From positions 9,672,001 to 9,736,000 of the forward strand of contig OY740813.1 of assembly GCA_963514005.1 (NCBI GenBank): a stretch of 64,000 nt of DNA. The letters run 5' to 3'. This document shows, piece by piece, positions 180 through 63,642 of the stretch. Under the pieces are notes generated by a model. The model saw nothing but the letters and a program-made list of their open reading frames with translations, had not been told where the DNA came from and ran no database searches. Source of the DNA: Raja brachyura (lineage: Eukaryota). Position 1 is the first letter of the stretch. The number at the start of each line of letters is the position of its first letter. The position numbers and the translations under genes were made by a program.

Positions 180-3100
180 CTACACAAACAAATGGATATG
201 GCCATAACAGCTAAACTTTTCCTGTTGAGGATTTGTCTTGCATACCAGGAATTGTTTCATCTCATAGAAGTGCGAGTAGAACGGCTTCATGGTAATTGAC
301 AAAATAAAACAATGGAGTAAGGAAATTCAATGGATTTTTTTTGAGAAGCATTAGCATCTGTAATAATGCACTTAAAAAAGTGGGATGAAAGCAATGAAAC
401 AACTTTTAAATATAATTTAATCATTTGGAAAAACATCATTAATAGTTCTTGTTGTGATACAGATACCGGACCACAAAGTACAACAGTTCTAAAATAAATT
501 GGCAGTGGTGAGACTTAAAATGAATAGCAAGAATCTGACATTAAAATTATGGGCTCAGGGGTCTTCTGCACAAGTCCAGAACTTCACCTGCATCTCCAAA
601 AACTCACATCTACCACCTCAATGGCTCAGGGCAATGGAGGCACAGGAACATCCTCTCCATAATCACCTTGTCAAGATCCTGCAGGATGTTATATGTTTTA
701 ATGTCATTCTCCTACACAAGACTCGTCTGCCCAACCCATCATCTAAGACTATCTACGCATTCCACGTACCAGAAAATCTTCTAGAAACAAAGAAAGTGCA
801 GATGCTGGTTTATACCAAAGATAGATACAAAATGCTGGAGTAACTCATCGGATCAGGCAGCATTTCCGAAGAAAAGGATATGTTTTAATCTTTCCTTAAC
901 AAAGGAGACAAATACTGTATTGCAGATCTCACCAATGCCCTATATACTGGGGCTAAATGACCTTACTGCTCTCTTCCTACTGTTAGTAAATCCCAACTAA
1001 CTAACCTGGCGCCTGGCATCATCGATGGAAGTCTCCAGCTGACGAGCTAGGCTAGAACACTCACGGGATTTCTCCTCCAAACGCTGCTGATTATGATGAA
1101 TTGTGTCCTCCCGTTGTGCCACCACCAGTGTTAGCTCTCGATTATGTGTACTGACATCTTCCAGTTTCCTACAAAAGTGATCAATGCACTCTTTAAGATG
1201 CAATATCCTTACAGTTCACAAATTGCTTTGTCTGTATTTGTAACAAGACATACCATTTAATTTTGATTATTCCATTCAGCCCCCCTTTAAAGAAAAAGTA
1301 GGCTTCAACCTCACTCCAGGGATTGAGCGCTTAATCAGGCAGGGGTAGTGATAATCTTTGAGATGTGATATTAAACTGTTGCCAATTTAGCTATTCTTAT
1401 AGTTCGGGAGTATATTGACCATCCCATAGCATGATTAGGGTTACTTTCTCATTGTTAGGTTTAAATGGTGGAACTCTGTATCAACAGGGCCATCTGTAGC
1501 ATTAAAAATGTGAAAGTAGATGAGAAAACGAATTCTCCCAATATTCTGGTCATGTTTTCTACAAATACCAGAGACTGATTAACTTTTCATTCACCTCTTC
1601 ACTGTTTGTGGCAGCACACCAAGCACAAATAGCTGCCACCTTTGAGCATATTGTGCAAATTATGTTAAGAAATTTGACATTATGTAATTTACCCTGGTGA
1701 GAACGTTTATGTTATTGGAATATAAACATATCTCATTCAACTCGCCAAACAAGTTCAGGATTTAACCAATTCCAAAAAGTCAAAGTCGTAATTGCACACT
1801 GCAAAATGTTTTGCAAGGATGTGACTATACCACCATGAAATGAAATATTTTACATCTGGCAGTGTTGATCTGACTCTTCAAGAAAACATGGCCTCATGGG
1901 TATATGCATCCCCTTAATTCATTACCCATCCGTGTTATCCAAATATTGTCATTTCACTTGTTTATTGGCTTTGTACTCATGATTGGTTGATAATTTTTGA
2001 ACGTTTGCAAGGAATGCACTTTTTAACAAGTGACAGACAGTGCAATAATTTCATTTTAAAATTTGGTAGAAAGTTTATCAATTTTCAATCAAAGCTCAGG
2101 TTAGGCTACATCATTGCACAATAGTATTTGGATCTCTCCATCCCATCTCCTTAAAGACACATTCCATTGCAGAGATGCAAAAGATTTGTTTAGAATCTGC
2201 AGCAAATTAGATAAACTGATTTTATCATGAACTGGGTCGTTTCAAACAAAAATCTAGAATAGTTGGGAATGATGAATCGGAAATTCCAATACCTGGCCAA
2301 ACAAGCCAAGGAAACAATAGCCGTTTTAAGAGCAGGTCATTAGGACAAGGGGGAATAACTTGTTAACAGGTAAGAAATCTCGCTGAGACACCAACCCCAT
2401 AAAATGTACAATAAGGCTATATACATTTTATTTTAAATGTGAAGGAATAAATAATTTCCTCTTACAATATAACAAGAATTTCAGTGCGAACTACCTCCTT
2501 TAAATTACACTCAACTAACCTTTCCAAAGTTTCAAATTTCAACTTTAAATTATGATTTTCTTCTTGCACACCGTGATACTTCTCTCTTGACCTTCCACCT
2601 AGTTCCTCAATCTGTGAAAATAAGGAATCAAACTGCAGAAAGTTAAAAATAACTAAATTTAATGTATAGACATAAAAAGCTGGAGTAACTCAGCGGGACA
2701 GGCAGCATCTCTGGAGAGAAGGAATGGGTATTGTTTTGGGTCTGGACCCTTCTTCAGACTGGTTAGGGATAAGGGAAATGAGAGATATAGACGGTGATGT
2801 GGAGAGATAAATAACATTGAATGAAAGATATGCAAAAAAGTAACAAAGCAACAGGCCATTGTAAGCTGTTTGTAGGGTGAAAATTAGAAGCTAATGCGAC
2901 TTGGGTGGGAGTGGGATAGAGAGAGAGGGATAATGTGTTAGTCAACATTTCAGGCAGAGATCACGCATCAGAACGGAAGACGAACAGGAAAGATTTTCAG
3001 CATATAGCAGGACAAAGGAGGATGGGATAGATGGTAGATACAAAATGCTGGAGTATCTCAGGCAGCATCACTGGAGAGAAGGAATGGGTGACGTTTCGGG

Positions 3101-12100: not shown

Positions 12101-15100
12101 TTCTATAAGTATTTTGAATTCTCCTTCAGATTTCATTTAAAACTTGTGTCATTTCATTTTCACTCTATGCTGATAAAATTGTCTTTGATTGAAAAAGACC
12201 ACCTAATTCCACCAGCATTACTTCACTCAACCCTGTTCTTCTCTTCGTTCATCCACTGCTGAATTCTAGAGTAAACCAGAGTCAACTACGGCTCGCCTGA
12301 TAGGCCTCTGTCAAATATTTTTCATAAACCCCATCCCATAAGGTTTTGTTGGCACATACCAACCCACACTACATTTATCGGTGACTCCCTGCTCACTGCT
12401 CTGATTTGGCACCTAGTCCAACAACAACTTGCGTTTAAAACTCCCATATTTGTATTAAAAGGCCTCAGAGCTCATTTCTGCCACATACAGTGGCTTGATA
12501 TAGACCAACACAAAGTGGTGCATAATTGTGAAGTGGAAGGAAAATGATGCATGGTTTCCAAATTTTATTACAAATAAATGCGCCATTTTGTGTTGGTCTA
12601 TCACATAAAATCCCAATAAAATACATTTACGTTTGTGGTTGTAACGTGACAAAATGTGGAAAAGTTCAAGGGGTATGAAAACTTTTGCAAGCCACTGTAT
12701 CTGGCTTCTCCTCTGATCCTACTACACTCCAAGAGTTCTGCATTCTACCAACTCTAGCCTCATGCACCTTCCCCACTTCCGTGATTATTACCCTTTCTCC
12801 ACAACTCCCATCATGTCCACTACACCATCCCCTGAATATTTCTCGCTATTCCTTCAAAAACATCCCTAAAAACCTAACTGTTTCATCAGGCTTGTTGATT
12901 TTTTTGCCTCATGTCAATTTATGTGCCTCTGAATTATTTGGGGATTTTTTATAATATGAATTATAATGTTTATCATTTTACAAGCATGATTACATTCACA
13001 TTTTTCTTGCAAATCATCACCATCTTATCTAGAGATATTGTTCTTTCCTAAATAGTCATTATATCCCCAAGAAAAGCTACTTGAGTGAAGAAGACAACAC
13101 AACTGAACCGATTTCTCACATACACAAGTACTGGGAAAAGTATACAATAATGTTATGGGGGAAAAACTACTTTCCAGCCACTACTGAAAGCACAACTAAA
13201 ACATAAACAGATGGCGATACCGGTCAAAGGTAGACACAAAATGCTGGAGTAACTCAGCGGGACAGGCGGTATCTCTGGAGAGAAGGAATGGGCAACGTTT
13301 TGGGTTGAGACCCTTCTTCAGACCAGTCAAGGTCTTTTGCCATAAATAATATCACCAACTGCAATATGTTCTTCTCACCGCATTTTCAGCTTCTGACTGA
13401 GCCAGTTTTTCAAGGAGGGCTTCTTTTAGTTCGAATAGCCTCAAAGCATCAGCCTGGGTTAAAAAAGAAGTGGAGATTAAACCATGAAAAATCTTCCTGA
13501 AACAAAGTAGTTACACAGTACCAGGGCTCAAAAAAAAAAACCCTGGACATTTATTATCAAATGACCCAACTCCAACAAAAGTGAAACAGAAGAGAAAGCT
13601 TTTCTAATTGAGTACAACTAAGGAAGAGAATTGACCAATCCAAGCACGGACAAATTCTTACCTCCTGTGCATGTTGTTCTCTTAGTAGCTCCCGAACTGC
13701 TCGATTTGTTGCATCAAAGGTCTCCAATTTCTGCAATAGCAATTCCTTCTGACGTATTAAGAAGTTACATTCTGAAGTTGACATTTGTTTCTCCTTAATG
13801 CAGAGAAAAAAACAAGTTTTGAGGCACTGCAGTTGCACACTGCAAATTTGGAGAAGAATTTTAAGAAAAGGGACCATTGAGAAATTTGTACTCTACCCTC
13901 TTTGGGATTACCAATCAGTTCATTAATCAGTTTCTCTTTTTCCCTTATCACAGCATTACACATCTGCACTGAATAGTCACAAACTTTTCTATCTGTTTCC
14001 AACTTTTTCTTGACAAAGTCCAGTTGCACATTCGCACCCAATATTTTTGCAAACTCTTACTGATATATCAGTTCTTGAGGAAAAATAATATGATACCATC
14101 CGTTACACCCCCCCCCCCCCCATCCCCTCCAACAACCAGTATTAACCCCAGGAGCCACTTCGATCTGTACCATAGTTTTGGCCAAGATTCCCAAGTTATT
14201 TACAGTATTATGCTCCCATACACATCTTCTGGTACCGTACCTCACAAACAGTAGCTATTTCTTCAGGCATCAATTTCCTAGTTTCAGGAAAACCCATTAA
14301 AAAACACTCCTACCCATCTTCAAGTCTTCAAAAAAACTCTATTTGGACGTTCAACCAAACCGAAATTTCTGTTCCACCTCTCTTCCACCAGTATTTATTC
14401 TCTAATTAAAAAAACGTTTTCTCTTTCTCATTGTTTGTCATTCTTTTCAGTAATAGTTATTTTGTCATACCCACACCGCCCCCCCCCCCCCCCCGAAGCA
14501 AAGCCGAAGGTAAACAATCTTCCGCATTAAACACCCTCAAAATTCATCTCTCAGTCTTGGAATTCCCTTCAACAATCCCATATCTCTCTTTGCCCAAAAC
14601 TGTCTAACACCCCCCCCCTTCCAATTTCCTAATTTGAACAAGATCCTTGGCACAACAACAAGGTGGACACAGGGTCACGCTACGTTCATGGGCATAGAGC
14701 CTAAGCCAAAGCGCAGGGGTACATATCTTCAAGTATTAAGACGGGAAGACCAAGGACACTATAATGATTTACTACTCTATGGAATAACACTATCCACAGG
14801 AGTTCCCTGTGTATCTTGTAATTGTGCAAGACCACATTGCATCAGTCCACAACAGTCAGCAAAAGACCAAACTGCATGGGAAATCAATGAACTAGTAGTT
14901 TCAACTTTAAATGTATCCTCCAAAATTAGCTATTTGATACTTTCCTCTTGGTCTCAGGACAGAATACCAAGTGCGTCAACTTTCTGGAAAGAACAATTCA
15001 ATTGGTGATGTCTTGTACAAATACTCCCAAAATTGAATGGAACATATCTACACACAAGGTAGACCACCACGTAACAACAGATATTTCATGTAATTCAGCA

Positions 15101-20090: not shown

Positions 20091-20247
20091 CCAAGGATGC
20101 TCAAGAAGATGAATAGTCTACTGCCATAGTAGTAGCAATGCAACTATTTTTGAGAACCCAGACTATTTGCAAACTAAACTACTGGGAATCAGTTAGTAAT
20201 CAAAATCAAAAGACTCAACTTATTTAAAATATTGGGTAACAATTCTT

Positions 20248-21892: not shown

Positions 21893-22127
21893 AAGAAAGA
21901 ACTGTAGATGCTGGAAAAAGCGAAGGTAGACAAAAGTGCTGGAGAAGCACAGCGGGTGAGGCAGCATTTATGGAGCGAAGGACTGTCGGTATCTATAGTT
22001 CGGGTTGGGTCCGACTGGGAAGTTGGGAATTGGAGCTGGAAACCGTGAGGTTACAAGATGGAGCACCTACTCCTCCGCTCCACAGATGCTGCCTCACCCT
22101 CTGAGTTTCCCCAGCATTTCTGTCTAC
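21893..22127. mobile_element. Fold-back PLE mini-element
   Basis: Inverted arms; 14-bp TSD ctttcacag(c/t)ggtt at 21879 and 22128. Confidence 0.75.
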
Positions 22128-23235: not shown

Positions 23236-23409
23236 ACCATTCACCCAAAGAGTGTAGAGAAGCGGCTGCTCACCTTCCAAAGGGCACGCTGCCTTTACAC
23301 TTCACCACACCATCGACAATCCTTTTGTTTTACATCCTATCCAACATCCCCAAGTACGAATGACGTGGTACGTTCATTGATTCAGCCTTTCCCTCCGAAC
23401 AGACTAGGA

Positions 23410-23630
23410 GGTAGACACAAAAAGTTGGAGTAACAGCGGGTCAAACAGCATCTCTGGAGAAACGGAATGGGTGATGTTTCGGGTCGAGACCCAAAAGGGT
23501 CTTCTCGAGGGGTCACGACCCGAAACGTCGCCTATTCATTTTCTCCAGAGATGGTGTCTGACCTGCTGAGTTACTCCAACTTTTTGTGTCTATCTTCGGT
23601 TTAAACCAGCATCTGCAGTTCCTTCCTACA
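23410..23630. mobile_element. Fold-back PLE mini-element (inverted terminal repeats, tail on one arm)
   Basis: tagacacaaaaagttggagtaac... versus ...ttactccaactttttgtgtcta; two opposed GAAAC cores. Confidence 0.8.
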
Positions 23631-23958
23631 CAGACCAGGTACTTGGCGATTTTGCTGTGCACATAAAATGGCGATCATTTGTTGTCACCCAGCAGAAGTC
23701 ACTGCCCCGTTTTGATTGTCTTCGCGGGTTGACAACACTTCTAAAATCGGAACTGATTAAACAGAAGGGATCTATGCTTTCACTAATGAATCCACCCATG
23801 CCATTGTTTGGTTAAATGACTGAAAGCGCCTCCATTGATAACCCTTACCGTACAGTACGAATATTGATTTATCGAACTTCAAGTAACCATTGCTTTCCCT
23901 CTTTCTCAATAGTCAAGAGTGTTTTATTGTCATATGTCCCAGATAGAACAATGGAAGC

Positions 23959-23986
23959 CTGAAGAAGGGTCTCGACCCGAAACGTT
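23959..23986 (+). ncRNA. Minimal hammerhead-like motif in solo PLE terminal fragment
   Basis: CTGAAGAAGGGTCTCGACCCGAAACGTT. Confidence 0.55.
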
Positions 23987-24271
23987 GCCTATCTCCTTCG
24001 CTCCATAGATGCTGCTGCACCCGCTGAGTTTCTCCAGCATTGTGTTTAAACCCTCGATTTTCCAGCATCTGCAGTTCCTTCTTTAACACATCTGCTTAGA
24101 TCTGTCGTTTTCACACCTTACTACCCTTCCTTATCTCTAGTCTCCCTCTCCCCTGACTCTCAGTCTGAAGAAGGGTCTCGACCTGACCCCTCACGCCTTC
24201 CTTCCCTCCAGAGCAGCTGCTGTGTTTGTTCCGCTGAGTTAAAGTTACCCCAGCATTTTGCGTCTGTCGTC

Positions 24272-24515: not shown

Positions 24516-24636
24516 CTCCAAATATTAACAGCCCTTTGTTGGCCTTTGCAATCCGAGATATACAAGCAGATGGTTACACAAAAAGCTGGAGAAACTCAGC
24601 GGGTGCAGCAGCATCTAAGGAGCGAAGGAGATAGGC

Positions 24637-24664
24637 GACGTTTCGGGTCGAGACCCTTCTTCAG
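24637..24664 (-). ncRNA. Minimal hammerhead ribozyme-like motif (mirror copy)
   Basis: Exact reverse complement of 26538-26565. Confidence 0.65.
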
Positions 24665-25749
24665 ACTGGTCAGGGATCAGGGAAACGAGAGATATAAACA
24701 GTGGTGTGGAGAGATAAGGAACAATGAGTGAAAGATATGCAAAAAAGTATTGGTGATAAAGGAAGCAGGCCATTGTAAGCTGTTTGTGGTGTGAAAATGA
24801 GAAGCTAGTGCGACTGGGGGGGGGGGGGGAGATGGAGAAGGAATGTCAGGGCCAGAGGGCTGAGGGAGAGGTGGGGGGGGAGGCAGTCTGGGTTAACAGA
24901 ATTGAGAAAATTCAATGTTTAAGCCCAGAGGATGCAGACTCCCAAAGCGGAATATGAGGTGCTGTTCCTCCAACTTGCGGTGTTGATCACTCTGGCCGTG
25001 GAGGAGGCCCAGGACCGAGAGGTCGGATACGGAGTGGGAGGGGGAGTTGAAGTGCTGAGCCACCGGGAGGTCGGGTTGGTTATTGCGGACCGAGCGGAGG
25101 TGTTCGGCGAAACGATCGCCCAGCCTCCGCTTGGTCTCACCGATGTAGATCAGCTGGCATCTGGAGCAACGGATGCAGTAGATGAGGTTGGAGGAGGTGC
25201 AGGTGAACCTCTGTCGGACTTGGAATGACTGCTTGGGTCCCTGAAAGGAGTGGATGGGGGAGGTGAAGGGACAAGTGTAGCATCTCTTGCGGTTGCAAGG
25301 GAAAGTGCCCGGGGAAGGAGTGGAGCGGGAGGGAAGGGAAGAATTGACGAGGGAGTTGCGGAGGGAGCGGTCTTTGCGGAAGGCAGACAGGGGGGGAGAT
25401 GGGAAGATGTGGCGAGTGGAGGGGTCACGTTGGAGGTGACGAAACTGGCGGAGGACTATCTGTTGTATGCGCTGGCTGGTGGGGTGAAAGGTGAGGACCA
25501 GGGGGACTCTGCCCTTGTTGTGAGTGGGGGAATGGGGAGAGAGGGCAGTGTTGCGGGGTATGGAGGAGACCCTGGTGCGAGCCTCATCTATAGTGGGGGA
25601 GGGGAAACCACGTTCTCTGAAGAACGAGGACATTTGCGATGACCTGGTGTGAAACACGTCATCCTGGGAGCAGATGCGGCGTAGACGGAGGAATTGGGAA
25701 TAAGGGATGGAGTCCTTACAGGAAGCAGGGTGGGAGGAAGAGTAGTCCA

Positions 25750-25850
25750 GGTAGCTGTGGGAGTCAGTTGGTTTGTAGTGGATGGTAGCTGTGGGAGTCA
25801 GTTGGTTTGTAGTGGATGGTAGCTGTGGAAGTCAGTTGGTTTGTAGTGGA
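25750..25850. repeat. Three 34-bp tandem units at the hairpin apex
   Basis: ggtagctgtgggagtcagttggtttgtagtggat at 25750, 25784 and 25818. Confidence 0.95.
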
Positions 25851-26537
25851 GTCATCGCAAATGTCCTCGTTCTTCAGAGAACGGGGTTTCCCCTCCCCCA
25901 CTATAGATGAGGCTCGCACCAGGGTCTCCTCCATACCCCGCAACACTGCCCTCTCTCCCCATTCCCCCACTCACAACAAGGGCCGAGTCTCCCTGGTCCT
26001 CACCTTTCACCCCACCAGCCAGCGCATACAACAGATAGTCCTCCGCCAGTTTCGTCACCTCGGTGAGACCAAACGGAGGCTGGGCGATCGTTTCGCCGAA
26101 CACCTCCGCTCGGTCCGCAATAACCAACCCGACCTCCCGGTGGCTCAGCACTTCAACTCCCCCTCCCACTCCGTATCCGACCTCTCGGTCCTGGGCCTCC
26201 TCCACGGCCAGAGTGATCAACACCGCAAGTTGGAGGAACAGCACCTCATATTCCGCTTGGGGAGTCTGCATCCTCTGGGCTTAAACATTGAATTTTCTCA
26301 ATTCTGTTAACCCAGACTGCCTCCCCCCCACCTCTCCCTCAGCCCTCTGGCCCTGACATTCCTTCTCCATCTCTCCCCCCCCCCCCAGTCGCACTAGCTT
26401 CTCATTTTCACACCACAAACAGCTTACAATGGCCTGCTTCCTTTATCACCAATACTTTTTTGCATATCTTTCACTCATTGTTCCTTATCTCTCCACATCA
26501 CTGTTTATATCTCTCGTTTCCCTGATCCCTGACCAGT

Positions 26538-26565
26538 CTGAAGAAGGGTCTCGACCCGAAACGTC
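26538..26565 (+). ncRNA. Minimal hammerhead ribozyme-like motif in PLE 3' terminal repeat
   Basis: CTGAAGA-A-GGGTC-TC-GACCC-GAAA-CGTC: catalytic boxes, stem II and palindromic ACGT; same strand as and downstream of the GIY-YIG frame; stem I is very short. Confidence 0.65.
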
Positions 26566-26984
26566 GCCTATCTCCTTCGCTCCTTAGATGCTGCTGCACC
26601 CGCTGAGTTTCTCCAGCTTTTTGTGTAACCCTCGATTCTCCAGCATCTGCAGTTCCTTCTTTAACACATATACAAGGAGATGATAGACACACAATTATCT
26701 TCGATGTAAATCAGCATCTGCAGTCCCTTCTTACAAAAAAAAACAAAAGATGAGTATACCTCCTAAATATAATGTTCGAATACACTGTCTGTATAACTCG
26801 TTATCACCTACCGCACATTTTAATGGACCATTGCGGGGTCCACCTTTAGAAAATAGGTGCAGGAGGAGGCCATTCGGCCCTTCAAGCCTTGATCATTGTT
26901 GCTTTTTGCATAACTTTCATTCAGTTGTTCAAAGGTCACCGAGGAACATATACAGGCACCACAGGCAATTGGGAAGGCAAATGG

Positions 26985-30050: not shown

Positions 30051-38716
<8,666 letters not shown>

Positions 38717-41597: not shown

Positions 41598-44500
41598 ATG
41601 TCGGGGCCGAATGGAGATCCGGTTGTTAATGTGGAGCATGAAGAGGACGATGTACCCGCTGAAGGTAAAAGTCAGTGGTGGACGGAAACTCAAAATACAA
41701 AATGCTGGAGGGACTCAACGGGGCAGGCAGCGTCCGTTGAAGGAATGGACAGGCAACGACGCCTGAGCCGCTGAGTTACTCCAGCATTTCGTGTTTTACT
41801 TCTTCAGATTGATCAAGAGACAAGCCAAGAGTGTTTTATTGTCATGTGTCCTAGATAGAACAATGTCATTCTTACTTGCAGCAGCATAACAGAATATGTA
41901 AACATAGTACTCTGTAAACGATATAATAAACGACAAAAACAAGTTCAGTGTGTGTGTATATATATTTATATATGTGCGATAGATACAAAATGCTGGAGTA
42001 ACTCAACGGGTCAGGCAGCATCTCTGGAGAGAAGGAATGGGCGACGTTTCAGGTCGAGACCCATCTTCAGACTGATGTCGGGAGGGGGCGGGACAGATAG
42101 AATGTAGTCGGAGACAGTAACACTGGTGGGAGAACTGGGAAGGGGGAGTAGATGGAAAGCAAGGGTATTTGAAGTTAGAGAACTCAATGTTCATAACGCT
42201 GGGGTGTAAACTACCCAAGCGAAATATGAGATGCTGTTCCTCCAATTTACCCTGGGCCTCACTCTGACAACCGAGGAGGCCCAGAACAGAAAGGTCAGAT
42301 TGGGAATGGGGAGGGGTTGTTAAAGTGCTGAGCAACAGGGATATCAGGTAGGTTAAGGCGGACTGAGTGGAGGTGTCCAGCGAAACGACCGCCGAGCTTG
42401 CGCTTGGTCTCGCTGACGTGAAGAAGTTGACATCAGGAACAGCGGATACAGTAGATTGGAGAAGGTGCAAATGAACCTCTGCCTCACCTGAAAAGACTTG
42501 GTATCCTTGGATATAGTCGAGGGGGGAGGTAAAGGGCCAGGTGTTGCATCTCCTGCGGCTCCAGGGGAAAGTACCGAGGGAAGGGGGTGGTTTGGGTGGG
42601 AAGGGACGAGTTGACCAAGGAATTGCGCAGGGAATGGTCTCTATGGAAAGCAGAAAGGGGGTGCAGATGGGAGGATGTGGCCAGTAATGGGATCCCGTTG
42701 GAGTTGGCAAAAATTTTGGAGGATCATATGCCGTAAATATATATATATGTGTGTGTGTGTGTTCGCTAACAAATATATCAGACGTTGGATAGAATTTGCA
42801 TGTTTGGCATCCTATGTAGTGTGTGGGGTTTATGTTTGGATAACATGAAAAATAAAGCTTTTTATTGCACCTCAATACCTGTGATAATAATAAACCTAAA
42901 GCTAATATGTGAAAGTAGCGGAGAGAAGCTACCAGATCCAGTGCCTCACACCAGACATGGATATGAACCAGCTGATTAATTATGGAGGGATACGTACATC
43001 TTTCGACTTAAACGCGTAAAAAAAGGACACAATGTGCTGGAGTAACTCAGCAGGTCAGGCAGCATCTTTGGAGAACATTGAGAGATAATGTTTCGGGCAG
43101 AGACCCTTCATCATAATGATTTTGGGAGGGAGCTGGGTGGATGTTTGTAGGATAATGATCTAAAATTGGAGAATGTAATGTTCATATCGTTAGGTTGTAA
43201 GGTACTAAAGCGGAATCTGAGATGCTGTTCCTCAGTTTGCGCCTGGCCTCTCTGCCAATGGAGGGGCCTAGGGCATAAAAGATAGCATGGGAAAGGGTCT
43301 TAAAATGGTTAGCAACTGGGTGATTTAGCAGGTCTTACCGAGATTTAAACTTTAGGGATACAGCAGGGTAACAGGCCCTTTGGCCCAATGAATCCATGCT
43401 GACCAGCGGTCACCTCGTACCCTCACCTACATACTAGGGACAATTTTACAACTCACTGAAGTCAATTAACCTTCAAATCTGGACATCCAAGATGTCCTCA
43501 TTCTTTAGGGAATTGGGGTTCCCCATTACCATCATAGATAAGGCCCTCACTTGTGCCTCCTACGGTCCCTGCAGTTCTGCCTTTGCTTCCCTTCCCTCTA
43601 ATCCTTACCTTTCACCTCATCAGCTGTCGCATACAACACATAATCCTCTGAAACCTTCGCCACCTCCAACGGTAATCACATCTTCCCATCTCCACCCCTT
43701 TCCGCCTTCCACAGAGACCGTTCCCTCCCTGGTTACCTCATCCCTTCCCACCCAAGCCATTCCCGCCCAGGTACCTTCCCCTGCAACACCTGTACCTATA
43801 CGTTCTCCCTCGACTCTGTCCAGGGATCCCAATAGTCCTTTCAGGTTGGGCAGAGGTTCACATGCACCTCCTCCAACCTCATCTACTGTATCCATTGTTC
43901 AAGATGTGGACTCTTAGACATTGGCAAGACCAAACGTAGACGGGGCGATCGTATCACTTAACACCTTCGCTCAGTCCGTCTGAACCTACCTGATCTCCCA
44001 GTAGGTAAACACTTTAATTCTCCTTCCCATTCCCACACAGACCTTTCTGTCCTAGAACTCCTCCATTGTCAGAGTGAGGCTAAACGCAAATTGGAGGACT
44101 AGCATCTCATATTTCGCTTGGGCTGCTTACAGTCCAATGGATAGTATGAATTGTGATTTCTCTGACTTCATGTCGCCTCAGCATTCCCTCTATCCCTCCC
44201 CCACTAGCTTCTCATTTTAACCCAACAGCTAACAATGACTTGTTTCCTTTATCATTGGTACTTTTTTTGCATATCTTTCATTCATTGTTTTATTTCTCTA
44301 TCATCATCCATATCTCTCGTTTCCCTTATCTTTAATCAGTCTGAAGGGTCTCGACTCGAAACGTCACTCATTCCTTCTCTCCAGAAATGCTGCCTGTTCC
44401 AGTTACTCCAGCTTTGGTCTTACACCAGCATCTGCTGTTCCTTCCTACAAATCTGTACGTCTTTGGAATGTGAGAGGAAACCGAAGCACCTGGAGAAAAC

Positions 44501-45933: not shown

Positions 45934-48900
45934 CAGAGATCATTTTCCTTTGAAGTTGTAATAATTTTGTTGATTGTAACTATTGCACAACTTTCCTGTG
46001 ATGCACATTACGATTTTGATCAGTCGTGCTCCATTGATATCTTTTGACAATGCAGCTTATTTTTTCTTAAGGGTCCCGACTCAAAACATCACCCGTGTCC
46101 TTCAGTGATGCTGCCTGATCTGCTGAGTTACTCCAGCGCTTAGTTGGTTTTTGGAGACCAGCACATGCAGTTCCTTCTTTCTCCATCTTTTTTTCTTGCC
46201 TGTTTTAATTGTGTAATTCCCCATTCATCTCTTCAAGGAACCAGTACTGCATCTTCTAATCATAACTTTTGCTGGATAAGAACACATTTATATTTCAAAT
46301 GGAACACCTTGATGTTTGTTTTTTATGCAACAGTGTACTTGGACAGGTCTGAAAGGCTACTAGTTTTTTGTAAGCTTGCCCAGTTAATCTTCAAAGTAAA
46401 CAAATCCCACAATCATTTTCAAAATTTTGAATTCATGTTTTTCAAGACAATCCAATTTTCCCTTTAATTTACTGCTGTAGCCTTCTGCCGACTCCGTCCA
46501 TTCACCAGATTCTGCAATAAACTTCACTCTATAATGTCTAATCTTCCTGCTGCTAAATCAAGAGTGGTACCCTTATTATGCTAATCATTTGCTTTATCTT
46601 TTAATTTCTTGACTATTTTCAAAGATAATTTGAAAGTGTTCTCTAACTCAAACATTCCCAGCTTCCACACTTCTCCCCCTCATTCGAGTGTTTGCTGCCA
46701 GAAACAAATGTATTTGTTTTTTATTGTTGTTTTTCAGTTCATCTATTACTTAGGAATGATGAGTATAGAGCTCTGTGCTTTTTTGAAAATTAAATGGTTC
46801 TGTAATCCAGTTAAAGCCATTCCATTGGCCGTCTTGTAGGACATGGATGATGAAGGAAAATTAAAAGAACGTCTTGCACGGCTCTGCTTCACTTATTTAA
46901 ATGGAATAAGCTGCTGATATAAAAGCTAAAATCTTTTACACTGGCTCAAGAATTAGTTAAATGGAAATAAAATGTTATAACTGCTTTGAAAGTTATAATC
47001 ATCACACAAATGAATAATTTAGTACTACCAGCACCAATAGTAATTCAACTTGCTGAGTATTCAGTGTTATTTCAGTTTCACTGAAGTGCAAGATTTCAAA
47101 ATTAGGCAGGGAACAATCCAGGCAATTGGGTATGTTAGTTGGTACCCAGGTAATGGCAAAACATTTGTATAAAGTTTGGAAATGATTCCTGCAGTAACCG
47201 GAAAATATAGGTATTGTATATCTAACATGCAGGATGACTGGGAAAGATGAATGTCCACGCCTCTAAATTAAGCAAGACACTTTATATAACATGTACATTC
47301 ATTCTAAGTGTTATTTCACTGGTGTTTCCTGCGCAGGCTATTCAAATAAAAACCATTGTGAGATATGCAGATTACCAATCAGAAGAGATTGTTAAAAAAT
47401 AACTTTGGCCACAGATGCCAATTTTAGCCTCTCACACATATTCTCTTCTCTTGGAACCCAGGCAAGATGATTTTTAATTTTTGGGAAAACGATGTTAACA
47501 ATAATACAATTATTTTTAATTAATTTAATTTAACATTCAATTCTATTAAATAACTGCTTCACCGATGCTGAGCATACGGGGAGAATATTTAGGTGAGCAC
47601 CTGATTTTAACAGTAAATTAAAAGAATATCTACCTTTTGGTGGTTGGGAAAGAAATTAGAATCTAATGGCGTAGGTTGAAAAGGACTAAGTGTTTGAAGT
47701 ATCCCCAAATTGGAAAAGGCACAATTTCCCTCTGTATTAAAACTGCTTTGAAATGAATTGAGTTTGAATCTGCAATAAACTAACTTGTTACGAATTTGTT
47801 TATATTAATAATATCCATCTATTTGGGCATTTAAGAAACATGTATATTGGTGTGAATGGCTGTTCTAGTCATTGATATGACTTTATGACTGACAGATTTC
47901 CTTTACATAAACGCATGGCTAAAAGCAAACAAGATTATTTTTCCCTCATTAATCCCAAAACTTGCATTTATAGCCATTTGATTTTGGACCATTACTGCTC
48001 CTTTACTTATTTTTTAATACTTTAAAGAGTACCAACTTCCTTCGCCAGGAGAAAAAAAAGGCTAATGACACAATATTGAATGCGTGCTTGTACTTCAGTG
48101 TGTTCCTAGCATTCTGTTCAGAAAACACAAGTTCCTGGTTCTTTCCAATGCAAAGATTATAAATTAAACTAATCAGAGGAGATTACAAAAGAAACCCTGG
48201 CCATAGTTATGCAAAAATTAGCTCCCTTTGAACCTGGATGAGGTGATTATATTTTGGGTAAGTGACCATTTGCTCAGACATCAAAACAATGTATATAATT
48301 CTAATAGACAATTATATATAAAGCTTCTGGCTAGGTATTGGTTGAAACACCAGATGAGAGTGATTTAAATCAAATGAGGTTGGGAGGGGGGGAGATGCTG
48401 CTGGTGCGACTGTGTACTTGTACACTAAAACTTGCATTTGGTGCAGATGCATTACAAATTTAAAAATCAACAAGTCAAGGACTTAAGTAGAAAAACCAAA
48501 GTTGCCATGTATTTAACATATCATTTGAAACAGGTATGGCTGAAACTTTGTTCCTGCAATTTTATTCCTGAAACCTAAGAGCAAGCTATTCAACCATCAA
48601 CTTAAACATGGTTTTCAAACTACGCCAGAAACAGCATTTTCACTAAGAAAAATGACAGTACTCACAAACAGCAACGTTTATAACAAAAATTCAACGTTAA
48701 AAGGGAAATCTACCTCCAAAAAAGTTATCTTTTTAATGTGCCATTACCCTAAATACATGACTGTCCATCCAAAATTTGCTACATATCAAATGTCACATTT
48801 TTAGAGAATTTAAAAATTAAAAAAAACATTAATTTTGTATTTTACAGATCATTATCTTCATGGGTGCATATGAGGCAGGGGATCTTCGCCTCCTGGACTG

Positions 48901-55000: not shown

Positions 55001-58000
55001 AAGCACACAAATCAAAAATAAACATGGAATTGCACACAATATTTACTTAAAAAAAACTAAAATTAACTGTATAATAATTAACAGAAAATTGGCACAATCA
55101 GCATTATGAATTAAGGCTCCACATAAAAATAAACCAACTTCCAGATTCAGAGATAAATGGAGGTGCATAGTGAAAGGTTTTCATGGTATTATAAGGGAAA
55201 TTTACAATCATTTAATGGATACAAATTGTTTTGGTACAAGAACCAATTTAGTAATCTGTACTAGATATAACTAGGCTCTTAGGGTAGGCTCAGCAACAGG
55301 AGAATAACAATCAGAACTGGAATCTATTGTTCGTAATCAACTGATTCTAAATAACTTACTAGGCAATCTATATTTTTTTAATTGAATGGAAAAGACTGAA
55401 CTTTGGAAAAACATGTCCCATTTAAACTTGTTTTTAAAGGTTCTGCTGCTTGGTGTATGAGCTCAATGTCTGAGAGGTCAAATTTTAAAACAAAGGTAGA
55501 CAAAAATGCCGGAGAAACTCAGTGGGTTAGGCGGCATCTATAGGGCGAAGGAATAGGTGACGTTTCAGGTCGGATTACCTTCTCTGGCCAGCTTTCCAAT
55601 CTGAAATTGTATTCTATAAAAAACTAATTGGATAAATTTGGAATTTGAAGGATGATTTATAAAGTACGTGTAAAGGCAAAAGACAAAGATGGAGCTTTGA
55701 CGCTGTGCCTGAAATGGTTAAAATATGAGGCTACGGACAAAGTGCATCTGTATTCTCGAGTTTAGAAACTTGAAGGGTAACATACTCAAGATATTTTTTA
55801 AAAATTCAGATGTGATAGTAATTGCTGTGACTATTTCTTCTCGTGGAAATATCTTGAACAAAAGATCGTATAAATGCTATCAGGGAATTTCAATTCACTA
55901 GCATCTTCACATCTGGAATTTGTTCCCCCAAGGAAACTGTGGACGGTGGAGCTCCATTGAAATTTTCACATTAGGGACTGCCAGATTTTTGAAATCAGGT
56001 ATTGAAGGATAAAATAAAAGATGAAAAATGGAGTGAAACGAAAGTTCAATCACAATGCAGCTCAATGGCAGGGTACAGGCCCGAGGAATGAAGTCTGATT
56101 ATTCCGAAGTTGACAATATTTTCAGGGAGACATCACCCTTGTCATTTTCATGCAAGATAGTGAAGTTTGGAAAACGGCAGAGGAATGGTAATGTTTATCA
56201 CAGAAAGAGATGTATCCAGACTTACATAAAGGCATTTAGGATAGGATATTTCTGGTTATATTTGCAGATTAGTCCAAAGTACTGAAACAATTTCGATGAA
56301 TACAGTAATTGGAGAAGGCAGATAGGTATCTCTATCCTGTCAGTGGGTGCTAAACCAGGTAGCTCCGAAAAAAAGTTGCGAGGAGAAAAAGGATTTTAAA
56401 AAATGGTTTCAATGTGTTGAAATGGGGATGAGACACCCAAGGCTTCACACTTTACTTTTAATGAGAGTTTTCCTATTTTGCACACTAATATAGTGAGAAT
56501 AATAAACCACTGATCAATCCATGCACACAAAATGCATTTCTTATTTATACCCAGACAGTATACCTATCTGCTCCCTTCTTCCCCCCAAATTATTGCTCAT
56601 TATAACACCAGTCCTTTTACAATCTATTATTCTACTATTCTTTAATTGCTAAATTAAATGAACAAATCTGAGGGCAGATGTGTGCAATGGATTTGTACAT
56701 CTGAGATCAGAACAAACTATATGCAGAATGTTTGAGTTATCATAATTGATGCCAAATCATGTCCATAATTTAATAATTAGAATCTTGTTAAAAATACAGC
56801 ATGGGGGTAATTAGACTAACAGCAACCATTTAAAACCAGTGATGATAATCACAGTGCATAGCAGCCTTCTGGAGATAAGTATAATATCACAACTCAATTG
56901 GAATAATCAGATAATCTATTTTGTTTTAACTCCCAATGCACCTCTTTAGATCAATGTATGTTGCCTGGCAAACAGTTAATTATATTTCTTTAAACTAAGG
57001 GGAAAATAATGATTCTGTTCCTTCTGTATTCTACCTATCCCCCAAGCTAAACTTTCCCCATAATTGGTCTCTAGCCCAATCCTGAACCCACATTTTCCTT
57101 GAGATATTTTCCCAGTTCCACAGTCCCCTTCAGATGCACCATATAGACCCAGTAGTTCTGACAATCCTATTTGTACTAAACTGCTCCAATTAAACCAATT
57201 AAACTTAGAACTAAACCAATTTCCCTTCTCAGTATGCATGCTAGCTGATGATGTCATCTGCTTTCTGATCTTCCTTTCAAACCTGGCACCTTCATCCCAA
57301 CATGATTGTCTTCACTATTTATTTACTCCCCTCAGCAATATCTCAGACCAAACCATTTGTCACATGGGGTTTTCTTTTTGACTCAACATGAACCTCACAC
57401 ACATCGAGCCATGGCATTTCTCTTGTATTTTTGCAACTTCTTTGAAGCCGATAATTCTCTGATTCTTATTTCTTTGCATCTACCATTATCAGCCATGGCC
57501 CCAGCCATCCAAGTTTTCAATTATCGAATTGTAGTCAACTTTATATCATTCTCTTTGGGATCCTGTTCAGAATCTACATTTCCAGCTGAATGTTTCTGAC
57601 ACCAATGCTGAACTTCCCTTTACTTGGTGCTTATCTGATTATGATAATGTAAGATTCCTTGATATCTTACATTGGATATATTACAAAAATCCAGTGTAGA
57701 AAATGAGGAACATTTCATTAAATTAAAAACTAACATTTGTGTGATTTTCCCAGTCTACATTATTAAGTTCGCCTTACTTGGGTGAATTTATTAGGGTATA
57801 ATGAAGAAAAGCACTGATCAACATTACTTTTTTCAGTACTCACCGTATACAGTCTCTGTATCATATGGCTCCTTCCGGTATTCTGGCATCAAGGTCTAAA
57901 TATGCAAAGCAGATGTTTATTTTTTTCTCCCCCATTCTAAAATACAAATTGTAAATACCATGAATGTTATTTCAGAGATGTCAAGCAAACCCAGAGGGCA

Positions 58001-61000
58001 TAATTTTGAGGTGAAGGGGGGGGGGGGGGGGGAGAGAGAAAGGAACAAGCTTTTCCACAGAGGGTGATGAGTATGTGGAATGAACTGCCAGAAGAAATAA
58101 TAGAAGCAGGTACAATTATAATTTTTCAAAGGCATTTAGACAGATGCATGGATAGAAAAGGTTTAGAGGGAATGTGTAGGAAGGAACTGAAGATGCTTGT
58201 TTAAACCACAGATAAGACACAAAAAGCAGGAGTAACTCAGCAGGTCAGACAGCATCTCTGGAGAAAAGGAATAGGTGATGTTTTAGGTTGAGGAGTGTCT
58301 CGATCTGAAACGTCACCTATTCATTTTCTCCAGAGATGCTGTCTGACCCGCTGAGTTACTCCAGCTTATTGTGTCCATCTAAAGGTTTAGAGGGATATGG
58401 ACCAAATACGGCAAATGGGACTAGTTCAGGTAGGCAAATGGGTCAGCATGGGCGAGTTGGGCCAAAACTTACATTCCATGCTGAGTTTGTTTATGATTAC
58501 CATGCTACCATGTTAACTGTTAATTTCCTAACTAAATGACCTTTATGTGTTTCTTCTCCCTCTTATGAGGGAATTTTAAAAAAAAAAGCAATCCCCACAA
58601 TTTTTTAGTCCTCTTTCTCAGTAGCTTTCAATCTCCAAATAAGCTATCCTTTCAGCAGTACCATGTCACACGACTGCCAAACTTTGTGATTCATAACCTC
58701 CAATCTGTTCAGAGTTTCGGAAATTTGTTTCAATTACCCCGATTGAGTATTTATCAATTTTAGTCTGATAGTCTTCATTATTTTAGAGCTGCATTTTATC
58801 ACTGCAATTCCTTTGCATCCTGGAAAAAAATATGAATTGACGATTCCTACCAAATAATTTGCTAATCTAGACTAACCGCTACTCATCTCGCAACATCTTA
58901 ATTTTAAAATCCTTTCATCTCTTCCATCCTTCCCATTTATGCAATAGACTCCTGCTCTGTCTGCCTGGGACTTTAAGCTCTTGCACATACCCTATTTTCT
59001 TCACACTGGCAATGATTGCTATTTTGTCCATTCTCTGGCTCCCAATTTATAAAAATCCTTCTCTAAACTTTTGTTTCTACCCTCATTTAAGATACTCTTT
59101 AAAATCTCCTTCATAAGGTGTTTGGTCATCTGCCCTTGCCTCATTTTATAGTTGGTATCAAACTTTGATAATGTGGTAAAAAGCCTTTAGTACATTAGCA
59201 ATACTGTACAAATGAGTACCTGTAGTAACACATTAAAACAAAATTGATCTTCCATGACAAATGATTTCATTAGAGTTGTAAAGATTAACTACATAAAAAC
59301 AGTAATAGAACAGTTAAAGATATAGCTTCATCATCCATATTGTATTGAATAACAATTATTAAACATGACGGAATGAGGAATTGCAAGCCGTTCTGACAGC
59401 ATATTGACAAACCTGAGAATCACTATCACTTAAGCTACCAGAATCGCAGTCGTCACCCTCGGTCATTCCTTCTTCATCATCTTCATCAAAGCAACCAACT
59501 GCATCAACCGTAATCATGTCCTCTGGATCATCTTGTCCAGCTTGATCTTTATCCAGGGAGCTGCGCTGCAGCTTAACCTGGCAACAAATGCAATTTAACA
59601 ATGTACAATTACACAGGGTGATGAACATAAAGAAGTGGTATACCTGCCTAAATCTCAAATGTGTATATTTCCTGAATACCTTACTCAAGTAGCAACCCGC
59701 CCATCCTTCTTGTCCTTCCAACTCTCAATTATGTGGCTTAGATAGTACCAGTTTTTAAATGAATTGTCCATATTTGGACTTTGCATTAGCAATTGACACT
59801 ACCTACGTATGGAAAAGTCAAGAGATGAGGTTCATCAACACAAATGCAAAATTTTGAAATGTTTGGATGCTTCCGCCTTGGGACAGGAGGAAGAAGAAGA
59901 GGGAGCAAAGGAGAAACCCTTGGATGTGTCCAGAGATACCAGAATGAGTTACGAAAAATCACTGGTGGAGACACTCTCCTATAAGATAATTGTTTTGATA
60001 TTTTTAATGTACCAATGATATAGGGACATGAATATAAATGTAACTGTTGCAAAAGATTTTAAAGACAATCAATTAAATTTGTGATCAAAATCTTGCAACA
60101 TGAATCAAGGCGAGCATTTATCTATCATTGCATAAATCATTAAATTATAATCAATAAATTATTTATTAATACCAATACAAAATGGATTGGTGCATTCTTT
60201 CCAAATAGTTAGACCTACTCAGCCAAAACATGCCTGTTGATCTTGGGGTCAGAAGGAAATGTACATAATTTCTATCTTTTAAGCAGGAGAAAAGAGCATT
60301 GTTTAAAAAGATTATAACAAGAGTCATTGAGCAACACAAAATATAAACAGGTCCATCACCCCTGCAATCAAACTGCAGACTGTTAATTACTCATATTTCA
60401 GTAATGCTAAATTAATCTCATTTTTAAAAATGTTCTAAGCATTCTCTTCAACACCCCCAGATACTACACATCTCCACACTAGAGGCAAATTACAGTGTGG
60501 GGTCTAGGAGGAAACCAAAGAACTTGGAAGAAATCTATGCAGTCACAGTGAAAATGTGCAAATTCCATACAAACAGCACTTGATTATGATTGAAATCTGC
60601 CTTTTGGGCTCCGAGTCAGTTGAATGCAATACTTTTCAGCTTTAACATCCATTTGACCATGCAAATAAGAATGTAGGTCTATTAAAAGAATGCGTTGCAC
60701 ATAAATATTAGCCTACTCTGGGTATGGAGTTGAACACACAACTTTCTAAAGCTGACAAAACCAAGTCCAAGTGCAAAAGTGGGATCCTAAAGAACATATC
60801 CAAATGAAGACATTTTTCAGATAGGTATCTCAATGGTCTCTATGCAAGTCATGGATAACAGTCCAATCGTCACAAAGCACCTTGGTCATTGCCTTTACAC
60901 TTGTCCTAAGACAGCAAAACCTCAAATTGAAAATCCTCGTTGTTCAAGTGACTTCATAATGTTGGTCCTCCTAATTATGTGCAATCTCAATTACTCCTAC

Positions 61001-63642
61001 ATCCATTCAAGAACTCCCTGCTTCCTTAATGCCAGCTTCTTGCACATGCCTGATTTTGCACCCAGTCTCTGCCAATCTGTTTTTCCACTCATCCAAGCTC
61101 TGAAACATCCATAATAAACTATAACACTATTATTTTTTACGCTAAATTATAAAACTCACTTCTTAGACGTCACTTGTTCAGCTGTTCTAACATCATCTTG
61201 TGTCTCATTGGTAAAAATGTATTCAATAACACAATTGTGAAGCCCCATTTCAGTTTCAATACATTGAAGGTTCCGTATAAATGTTGCCATTGAAAGCTGT
61301 AATTCATCTGCACTGCTCTAGGACACAGGAATAGCTATTCCAAATGCATGAAAGTAAATTGACCTAAAAATGTCCCACAAATCCCACTATGGAAACAAGT
61401 GAAAAGCTTAGAAAAAAAGGTTAGTGTACCTCTTCCACTTTCTGCTTGTGTTCTGGCGACTTCATGTGCTCCACAAACTTGCGGGGGGTTTTGAAATGTC
61501 TGCTGCAAACTGTGCAGAAAGGCCGCAGAGAGTACTTAGAAAGCTAGTGAGAAACAGAGAACATAAATAACGTAGCTGCAGCATGGGACGGGATTTGCCT
61601 AGTGGTTTCTTTTTTTTTTTTTTAAATGGAGCACAAAAGAAACTGAGTGCCCGTTTCTTGATTATTATACTATTCACATCGTTTTGGCTGGGGCTACATC
61701 CATCTCGAAATTAAAGATAGTAGTGCATGCACCACTACACCGACAACCCGGAAAGAATATACACAAATAGTGTAGAGCAAATTTCAAAACAACGTATGGG
61801 CAGTCAAATATTTTTGTACAGCTGGGCATTATGACATGATGAAAATAAAAGTCCTTCAGCTGTGACTTCCCTTGCCCAAGTGACCTTCTGACTTATACAG
61901 ATTCCAGTACCACTACAATCAGTCTGAAGGGTCTCGACCCGAATCATCGCCTTACATGTTCCCCAGAGCTGCTACCTAATTTGCTGATTTACTTCAGTAC
62001 TTTGTGCTTTGTTTTTTCCAGTACTACACACAAGTGTGAGCATCAAATCCAACAGCAATATCATCATTTTCAAAGTAGGAGGCTTTTTAACAAATCATTT
62101 TGCAATTCTAACAGGATAGCGTATTACAGCATGGAAACAGGCCATTCAGACCATCATGCCCATACCAACCAGTGGGGAGCCATCCCTATTAATCCCATCT
62201 TTCAGCATTTGGCCCATCGCCTTAAATGCCTAGGCGGTTGAAGGGCTTGTGTGGACACTTCTTAAGTGCCGTCAGTGACCATTTTCAGCATTCTATCAGG
62301 CAGTGCAACCCAAGCACTCATCCTCTTTCGCAGAAAGCTTCTCCTCAGATTCCCTCCAAATCTCTTACCCCTTACCCTAAACTGCATCTTCTAGATTTGT
62401 TCACCTTTGATAAGGAAAACTTATTGAACATCCCCGTGACTTGTGTGAGTTTTCTCGGGGAGCTCCGGACTCCTCCCACACTCCAAAAACGTATAGGTTT
62501 GTGGGCTAATTGTAAATAGTAAATTGTCCCTAGTGTGTGTAGGATAGTGTTGTGTACAGGGATCCCTGGTTGACACAGACTTAGTGGGCCAAAGGGCCTG
62601 TTTCTGCAGTGTATCTCTAGACTGTCAATCCATTATGGGTACTGACCTCCAGCTACAGGGATCTACAAGCATCGTATCGTCAAGGAGGCAGGTAGCATCG
62701 GAGACTCAGACCACCCTGGCCACACTCCCATTTCACTCCTGCCATTATTATTTGTCATGGTATTTACATAAAACCATGTTTACATATCTGTAGTGCTGCT
62801 GCAAGTAAGAATTTCATTGTTCTGTTTTGAGACAAACGACAATAGAACTTTCTTGACTTGACTCATGATGATGCAAGCCAAAATGTTTTGAGGATATTTT
62901 GTTATAGTAAAAAATATTTAAGCATATTTAAACAAAAGCAAGAAAGAAAATGCTTTAAATGCATAAGATTCGTTAAGACCTGAAATGTTAGTCCAAAGCT
63001 TCAGAGGAGCTCTCAGTATTCAAAAGGAAAACTAACTTTTCACTTGAAGACACTCATCAAATGGAGGTACAACACAAGCAATATCTGTGGAAAGATTCTC
63101 TGTCTACCTTGTGCGTCTGTGTCCTGCGGTGTTCAATTGTATTCCCTCTGAAATGACCCTGGCAGGTACTGCACCATCTAGGTCGTTTTTTGTCACTGTA
63201 AAGCAAGAAAGAGTTACTTGGAACTGGCTGGGGTATCCAATCCTCAGATTTTACCTGATCTCACCTTCCAAAAATTGCTCCAGTGGGGAGTGTTTGGAAT
63301 ATTTAGGGAATGGTAGATAAATACAGGATAGAAAATTAAAATTATACTTGCAAGATTCAAAAGTGAGGTAGAAAGAGGCTTCGGAATATAAAACTATAAT
63401 CTGTTTGTGCTGACCATTATACATAATTCAACACTTAAGAGATTTCTTTCTGTAGCGATTTTAATGTCAAGTGTTTCAAAGCGCTCCAAATTATCAATCT
63501 CCAGCAATTGTACTCACCTTTCTCTGCTTCTTCCCACTGAGCTTGTCGCTGGAATTAACGTGGACAGACAAGCATTACTCATCTGCTGAATCTCCAAGAG
63601 TCTCTGATGATGGCGTGTCCCAATCATGTGCTTCTGAAAGTT
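51103..63642 (-). CDS. CIZ1: CDKN1A-interacting zinc finger protein 1, 3' seven exons (5' part outside window)
   Basis: Exons 63518-63642, 63108-63195, 61430-61543, 59413-59577, 57844-57895, 54818-54939, 51103-52089, GT-AG and in phase. Motifs RWCSTCQ...EHRRTQTHK, LRPFCTVCSRHFKTPRKFVEHMKS, ITVDAVGCF plus acidic tract, matrin-type CKLCHKFYHSE...HCKSLMH. Adjacent to BBLN as in human. Confidence 0.92.
51385..51912. repeat. Two tandem 264-bp (88-aa) units in the CIZ1 last exon
   Basis: gactcacatttgtcag at 51386 and 51650; peptide SCEAE...CSPLQKLQPEN...MPDVKFD...DKCES repeated. Confidence 0.95.
54818..54939 (-). CDS. CIZ1: CIZ1 matrin-type zinc-finger (MH3) exon
   Basis: GQEYVVPVTGFLCKLCHKFYHSESTARFTHCKSLMHFQNFQ; ccacag acceptor, gtgaga donor. 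Confidence 0.93.
57844..57895 (-). CDS. CIZ1: CIZ1 small exon (TLMPEYRKEPYDTETVY)
   Basis: tttag acceptor, gtgagt donor; phase 0/1 links the flanking exons. Confidence 0.82.
57980..58490 (+). mobile_element. CR1 3' fragment interrupted by a fold-back PLE mini-element (58172-58380)
   Basis: CR1-like tttccacagagggtg...tggaatgaactgccaga; perfect 15-bp TSD aaaggtttagaggga at 58157 and 58381. Confidence 0.75.
59413..59577 (-). CDS. CIZ1: CIZ1 acidic-domain exon (…MITVDAVGCFDEDDEE…)
   Basis: tgccag acceptor, gtttgt donor. Confidence 0.92.
61430..61543 (-). CDS. CIZ1: CIZ1 zinc-finger exon (LSKYSLRPFCTVCSRHFKTPRKFVEHMKSPEHKQKVEE)
   Basis: cactag acceptor, gtacac donor. Confidence 0.93.
62430..62620 (+). 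mobile_element. V-SINE 3' part
   Basis: ctcccacactccaaa...aattgtccctagtgtg. Confidence 0.7.
63108..63195 (-). CDS. CIZ1: CIZ1 zinc-finger exon (DKKRPRWCSTCQGHFRGNTIEHRRTQTHK)
   Basis: ttacag acceptor, gtagac donor. Confidence 0.9.
63518..63642 (-). CDS. CIZ1: CIZ1 exon (NFQKHMIGTRHHQRLLEIQQMSNACLSTLIP...)
   Basis: ttcaaag acceptor, gtgagt donor. Confidence 0.85.

Follow-up and report, generated by a model that had tools for sequence, protein, structure and literature searches.

Minimal type I hammerhead ribozymes in the pseudo-LTRs (pLTRs) of Penelope-like elements (PLEs) were published as a class in 2014 (PMC4209133), and the function of Penelope hammerheads has been called unclear (PMC8557442). 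In the D. virilis element the start site lies 46 nt before an intron that ends at helix I (PMC2377424). For PAc, the Poseidon element of Anolis carolinensis described by Frangieh et al. (2024; PMC11167929), the substrate was mainly uncut RNA, and cleavage, which required the protein, was dispensable in vitro. Short, non-coding, hammerhead-bearing derivatives of PLE pLTRs have also been described as non-LTR retrozymes, in a sample that included one chondrichthyan (bioRxiv 10.64898/2026.07.22.740005). Here we analysed a window of 64,000 nucleotides (the whole stretch of DNA, from the skate Raja brachyura) through which a repeated hammerhead-like motif is scattered. We consider it probable that these motifs are passengers of a Neptune-like Penelope element, likely inserted from uncut RNA and then left to neutral decay. 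What is new here is the insertion-junction evidence, which points to templates that were mostly uncut and to transcripts that likely start three bases before the core.

Identity and abundance of the hammerhead motif

By its base-for-base fit to the published consensus, the repeated motif is a minimal type I hammerhead in the pLTR of a PLE, which is the identity that the original prediction had given it; the skate motif adds a member to a class that was itself already known (PMC4209133). Like that class as described, it has a CUGANGAH core with an unpaired base, a G10.1-C11.1 pair, a palindromic 15.2-16.2 and no helix III, and it lies in pLTRs, mostly in solo truncated copies, with some pairs on opposite strands. 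Its 2-bp helix I matches those of Culex and D. virilis in Fig. S3 of PMC4209133, where the 56 motifs include no cartilaginous fish. Its stem II of only 4 bp is unlike that of the class as presented in the same paper, and its tens of thousands of identical cores contrast with the ~4,000 (coelacanth) and ~9,000 (Xenopus) heterogeneous motifs given there. Literature searches on Penelope elements and hammerheads in sharks and skates, on elasmobranch Neptune, and on insertion junctions and pLTR structure, which covered mostly listings and excluded subscription papers, found neither a paper on this skate family nor a junction census.

A strict descriptor (full core plus 4-bp stem II) matched the window four times, against a mean of 0.015 (maximum 1) in 200 Markov controls, whereas the Rfam hammerhead models gave zero matches in the window, even at E<=10. 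An Rfam mir-1270 match (31.7 of 90 bits) was rejected, being the head-to-head hairpin at 58.2 kb. Genome-wide (2.7 Gb), the exact 27-mer core occurs 53,803 times (control 0), evenly on the two strands (26,974 vs 26,829). Family matches in the window number 30-36 by nhmmer, varying with the query, and 32 with a profile built on the sequence 3' of the cut. Over 774 kb this profile found 250 copies of all ages (reversed control 0), comprising 18 intact copies, 31 with the core kept and the stem or palindrome damaged, 95 with core changes and 106 without part of the core; extrapolated from this sample, which was not random, the family would hold ~0.9 million copies genome-wide. When the descriptor was loosened it gave 6,374 genome matches, of which the first 100 were almost entirely mutated members of this one family; other stem II families were not found among those 100.

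All five copies singled out in the original prediction (23959 and 26538 on the plus strand; 24637, 42043 and 3090 on the minus strand) were located, recognisable family sequence lies at every one of the 17 positions called decayed, and the predicted cut after GUC indeed falls at 26565. Five copies in the window carry all core bases (CUGANGA ... GAAA ... UH). The description of the five as intact or nearly so holds for their places and needs qualifying for two of them: in 3090(-) U faces C in stem II, leaving 3/4 pairs, and in 42043(-) the 10.1-11.1 pair is G-U and the extra base is U. A CUCG loop closes stem II, which has 4 bp; the alternative of 5 bp around a 2-nt loop was discarded as sterically impossible.

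Further detail came from 140 copies. Stem I, for which 2-3 bp had been suggested, has 2 bp, position 2.3-1.3 being A-C in 77/140. Between 9 and 10.1 the unpaired base is A in 120/140; given as a caveat in the original prediction, as an extra A, it is in fact conserved and belongs to the consensus CUGANGAH of PMC4209133. Position 10.1-11.1 is G-C in 95/140 and G-U in 19/140, and position 1.1 is A in 90 and G in 41, both of which pair with U2.1. A palindromic 15.1-16.1, ACGU in intact copies, replaces helix III; its centre is CG in 65/140 and mostly CA or TG in the others, from CpG decay. Between subfamilies the core is constant, which fits constraint acting on the source elements, while loop 2, position 1.1 and downstream sites vary. 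Stem changes between subfamilies are one-sided only, in the single lineage found, and although stem I (2 bp) and stem II (4 bp) can pair, covariation on 26 copies was no higher than in shuffles.

Table 1. Hammerhead copies and element features in the 64,000-nucleotide window.
Feature	Position	Strand	Context
Core complete, stem II with 3/4 pairs	3090..3117	-	Sense, ODF2 intron; best genic candidate
Dead copy (G12>A, palindrome and U16.1 lost)	2730..2757	-	Sense, ODF2 intron also holding 3090(-)
Dead copy (G12>A)	13294..13321	-	Sense, ODF2 intron
Head-to-head short-copy pair, both without 5' half of core	23410..23632	.	Window
Solo short copy, tail present, core 23959-23986 intact (H17 = U)	23956..24090	+	Intergenic
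One 5'-truncated inverted Penelope-like insertion	24569..26668	.	Arms 99% identical; tail on right arm only
Intact hammerhead	24637..24664	-	Left arm, same insertion as 26538; intergenic, ~4 kb beyond RNA-covered PTGES2 3' end
C-terminal 312 codons of element frame	24893..25831	-	End of RT region, C-x4-C-xx-C linker, GIY-YIG
Internally deleted frame fragment, right arm	25851..26310	+	Insertion 24569-26668
Intact young-subfamily hammerhead (C3 to C17)	26538..26565	+	Right arm of inverted insertion, intergenic
U4 and G5 changed	28660..28687	+	Antisense to PTGES2, edge of RNA-covered 3' region
Near-intact older-subfamily hammerhead (G10.1-U11.1)	42043..42070	-	Antisense in BBLN intron 41666-45744
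3-nt deletion in CUGANGA box	44341..44365	+	Sense, BBLN intron
Copy without CUGA box	46069..46144	+	Sense, 3' of BBLN stop, ahead of first poly(A) signal
Copy without CUGA box	55495..55592	-	Sense in CIZ1
Head-to-head short-copy pair, neither core intact	58173..58380	.	CIZ1 intron
3-nt core deletion	61924..61948	+	Antisense in CIZ1

The Penelope-like element and its insertion junctions

Two of the intact copies, 24637(-) and 26538(+), represent one event, since the arms that carry them are nearly identical and the target is duplicated (~15 bp, one mismatch). The hammerhead lies ~230 nt behind the stop of an RT/GIY-YIG frame, in which the GIY-YIG match (E 3e-4) is just under the Pfam cut-off. 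Genomic relatives (127 scored) are 97-100% identical, with open frames of up to 1,203 aa. At the locus with the 1,203-aa frame (L103) the 5' pLTR is truncated and the target is duplicated over 13 bp; the frame matches RVT_1 (E 2e-4) and GIY-YIG (E 2e-3), both below the curated Pfam cut-offs. The element protein has 936 homologues, with RVT_1 in most of the 120 listed, and no match in a phage collection. A single frame with RT followed by a C-terminal GIY-YIG is the EN+ Penelope-like arrangement, and a pLTR, an optional tail, an inverted 5'-truncated partner and a target duplication are all present in the family.

The C-x4-C-xx-C linker of the frame falls within the form C-x2-5-C-xx-C, which, placed between RT and endonuclease, is a feature of Neptune and also of Nematis (PMC8557442). 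The linker thus points to the Neptune or Nematis type and we call the element Neptune-like; the label Poseidon-like was discarded because the cysteine linker fits Neptune-like. Judged from its sequence, this would be a young, very abundant Neptune-like Penelope retroelement of skate. The linker sets the skate protein apart from PAc, and the PAc frame opens in stem II whereas the skate frame opens after the tail (PMC11167929). Skate and PAc are alike in having two RT start sites that bound the tail and no helix III, and also, as read from insertions in skate and from in vitro work on PAc, in the apparent extension of both target strands on an uncut RNA template (PMC11167929).

For the junctions, a 38-mer that lies 3' of the cut and occurs 51,713 times genome-wide served to pick 102 young copies, all within the initial 4 Mb of one contig. 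Their 5' ends fall at -6..+3 of C3 in 53 cases, at -19..-7 in six and farther upstream in 30; ten more lie within the core, one at the cut and two beyond it. The 5' ends of the all-age set of 250 likewise peak at the 5' foot of the ribozyme. Across the genome, 3,806 copies have their start at -3, preceded by two non-element bases, against 178 at the cut and 79, 77, 79 and 120 at +25, +27, +30 and +31. The excess of -3 over cut starts is ~20-fold in raw counts and ~12-fold after correction for the share of flanks that each search pattern captures (~0.63 for -3, ~0.36 for the cut), and ~1% of young copies start at the cut. Because -3 starts so far outnumber starts at the cut, the templates were likely mostly uncut RNA. 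Starts at the cut are ~2-fold above neighbouring positions, which may be a hint of cleavage.

The base before a -3 start is G in 56 of the first 100 of the 3,806 matches (expected 26%; p 3e-10), and cap copying would place a G at this position (PMC3287187). This G signal is weaker in the smaller sets with resolved junctions: at 26 solo loci the base before AGT is A in 14, G in 11 and T in one, and the element-adjoining base of 14 untemplated inserts is G in five, A in five, T in three and C in one. We take the -3 base to be the A of an initiator-like YYANWYY. A target duplication of at least 10 nt was absent at 17 of 32 resolved loci; six of the 32 resolved -3 junctions have inserts of 0-3 nt and one an insert of 13 nt, while two more, whose gaps are longer, belong together as arms of a single inverted pair. 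The 3' ends of young copies form two clusters ~36 nt apart, before and after the tail, and 11 of 13 simple two-arm loci have the tail on exactly one arm.

The short skate copies resemble non-LTR retrozymes in being non-coding, hammerhead-bearing derivatives of a PLE pLTR, but retrozymes form head-to-tail arrays with a ribozyme in each unit (bioRxiv 10.64898/2026.07.22.740005) whereas the skate copies are mostly solo. Close pairs (n=66) are head-to-head in 42 cases and on the same strand in 15, instead of forming tandem units that each hold a complete ribozyme. Close neighbours being mostly head-to-head, they would yield double strands rather than double hammerheads.

Two kinds of unusual insertion were also observed. 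At three loci (L279, L284 and L299; ~1350-1750) there are arrays of 4-5 head-to-tail units of 61-63 nt, without the hammerhead core, each of which runs from G1.1 to the first RT start site; the array at L284 is enclosed by one target duplication. By their junctions these look like repeated template jumps on cut RNA, although two of the three have a common junction and may not be independent, and the search pattern selects for arrays. No 61-63-nt arrays were seen in the four control start listings (+25, +27, +30 and +31). The other is an older-subfamily inverted insertion (L303:1120-1600; G000:C16 near 43.67 Mb) with a precise leader-core joint on both arms, where the end of the post-tail leader meets the first base behind the CAG that precedes the core, much as spliced or back-spliced RNA would show it. 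As an exact 21-mer this joint occurs at one locus genome-wide, and splicing was rejected on this count as the main source of short copies.

Decay after insertion and the host genes

Among 85 young copies, non-CpG changes were found at 13/850 core positions and 13/1275 free positions (p 0.32), so that the core was not conserved above neutral after insertion; host domestication would imply such conservation. No compensatory changes in stem II were seen among the 140 aligned copies. Neither part of the sequence test that the original prediction had set for itself, excess conservation of the core and compensation in stem II, thus turned out in its favour. G12>A is present in 44/140 copies of all ages, the general base G12 falling in a decaying CpG; after insertion, CpG decay would strike G12 and the ACGU palindrome first. 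Taken jointly with insertion of uncut RNA by a Neptune-like element, it is probable that the inserted hammerheads decay neutrally, like junk. Domesticated amniote hammerheads such as those of RECK and C10orf118 are type I motifs in sense introns, single-copy, conserved and with tertiary contacts; the skate copies, as apparently neutrally decaying insertions, are unlike them. Both amniote examples are named in PMC6155905. Copies 44341 and 61924 have lost the same 3 nt from the GAA repeat within their cores, which is either recurrent slippage or the mark of a dead sub-lineage.

The coding exons of ODF2 run on the minus strand from 19480 down past the window start, one of them being 98% identical to a protein named from Amblyraja radiata, which marks the host as a skate. 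BBLN lies on the plus strand (exon 1 41599-41665, exon 2 from 45745). A CIZ1-type zinc finger occupies 63060-63260 on the minus strand, and the exons at 51-60 kb probably belong to CIZ1. The minus-strand gene at ~30.0-38.7 kb, with a GST/glutaredoxin match, is presumably PTGES2. Contigs from runs guessed to be RNA cover 28725-30207, in the PTGES2 3' region; placed on 23100-31200 only, they give no strand or RNA-end information and bridge only that region.

Several other features were noted in the window. A CpG-rich stretch at 22000-24500, upstream of the first ODF2 coding exon and adjoined by the young 2.1-kb inverted insertion, is probably the ODF2 promoter. Two minus-strand segments, 17002-17127 and 15953-16138, both match ODF2 residues ~150-191, and the former breaks the exon order, as it precedes the exon that encodes residues 69-129; this is a duplicated exon or an assembly quirk. 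An in-frame 264-bp tandem duplication, 90% identical, lies at 51383-51910 in a 341-codon acidic frame, which is probably the final exon of CIZ1. A different retroelement, presumably CR1/L2-like, with an RT and a first frame of GDSL/SGNH type, has left fragments at 8488-10300 and 33369-33930. A second short interspersed repeat family, which we assume to be SINE-like, is present at 22861-23092, 31295-31536, 36666-36889 and 62445-62623, several of its copies adjoining or interrupting Penelope fragments. Pfam matches to 7TMR-DISM and Toxin_18 on short frames were below cut-off and taken as chance.

The orientations of the copies relative to ODF2, BBLN and CIZ1 are as the original prediction had them. 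Ten copies in the window are genic and sense, four in ODF2, one in PTGES2 (a tail fragment), three in BBLN and two in CIZ1, a count that omits copies at 21.0-23.5 kb. Not one of the ten is fully intact. The three intact copies of the window are intergenic, two of them being arms of one inversion, and the near-intact fourth is antisense to BBLN. Even the best sense candidate, 3090(-), has one mismatch among the four pairs of its stem II, and the palindrome required for dimerisation is gone from the neighbouring copy at a distance of 360 nt.

Folding predictions give stem II a probability of ~0.01, other hairpins being favoured. Relative to the best fold, the catalytic dimer is predicted to be less stable by 15 kcal/mol in the short RNA, 17 in the tail-less RNA and 24 in the tailed RNA, tertiary contacts not entering into these energies. 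In the tailed RNA the core is predicted to pair with the tail. For 26535-26668 the predicted fold is a single long hairpin (z -1.6) in which the tail pairs both with the body (8-9 bp) and with the core's 5' half, and the body-tail helix, judged by eye, looks retained in the older subfamily.

Proposed life cycle and its alternatives

We propose that the transcript of the element starts at the A three bases before C3, a position read from the insertion junctions, and that the ribozyme would form its first 31 nt; a start at -3 would limit stem I to 2-3 bp at the 5' end. Reverse transcription would begin internally, ~95 or 130 nt downstream, and run to the 5' end, giving rise to a swarm of 100-135-nt copies. 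Going by the relatives of the element, cleavage would require another copy and, probably, the protein that the element encodes; it would serve the element, not the host.

The -3 boundary may instead have arisen through splicing, through RT halting at structured RNA or as the terminus of an antisense template, and not from a transcription start, which we regard as possible but unlikely. A pyrimidine tract and CAG stand directly before the core in all long copies, both arms of L303 show the exact donor-acceptor junction, skate and D. virilis have in common a 3' splice site at the 5' end of helix I, where the D. virilis intron ends (PMC4209133), a model of antisense self-priming has been published (PMC3846280), and a weak hairpin is predicted just upstream of the core. 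Yet the splice junction of the element is confined to that one locus, the resolved -3 junctions bear short inserts rather than exons, and the ends peak at -3/-4, not at -1. Cutting of the element RNA to unit length by the ribozyme, with cut or circular RNA as the normal template, is a model proposed in PMC4209133 that would account for the excess of starts at the cut over 77-120 nearby and for the three arrays that begin at G1.1. We nevertheless think it quite improbable, as the cut is the start of only 1/102 young copies and is far outnumbered by -3, 37 of the first 100 cut-site matches are fold-back joints or array units, and a re-ligated circle would leave the stop at -3 unexplained.

It had further been suggested that host transcripts may carry latent self-cleaving or dimerising modules from these insertions, with possible effects on host genes. 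With so many exact cores in the genome many must be sense-intronic, 18 same-strand, core-intact pairs lie less than 3 kb apart among loci selected for the motif, and family sequence is abundant in contigs of the runs guessed to be RNA. Against this, the window holds no fully intact copy in the reading direction of a gene, so that cutting of host transcripts is unlikely; core conservation and covariation show no excess, the catalytic dimer is disfavoured in the predicted folds, and inverted pairs would give long double strands. Published minimal hammerhead monomers showed no cleavage and dimers were weak (PMC4209133). Retrozymes are reported to be depleted from Xenopus introns (bioRxiv 10.64898/2026.07.22.740005). 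We therefore consider working hammerheads in host transcripts very improbable and do not uphold that part of the original prediction.

Within a transcript starting at -3, the hammerhead might be the capped first 31 nt of the element mRNA and act as a protein-triggered decapping switch, a tentative suggestion that we would not expect to hold. The core would be held off by pairing with the tail and few RNAs would be cut, these leaving fossils in the form of ends at G1.1 and template-jump arrays starting there, while the acceptor at the foot of helix I would join the tail to the core and give short tandem or circular units. If this were true, tens of thousands of junctions would constitute an in vivo record of the firing of a Penelope ribozyme.

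To conclude, the value of this family lies in its scale, since more than 50,000 identical cores let junctions reveal the transposition cycle. For the host, we argue that the ribozymes are a load cleared by CpG decay and not regulatory modules. For the element, the skate junction counts agree in vivo with the findings in the anole: nearly all templates would be uncut, and most short copies end at one upstream boundary.
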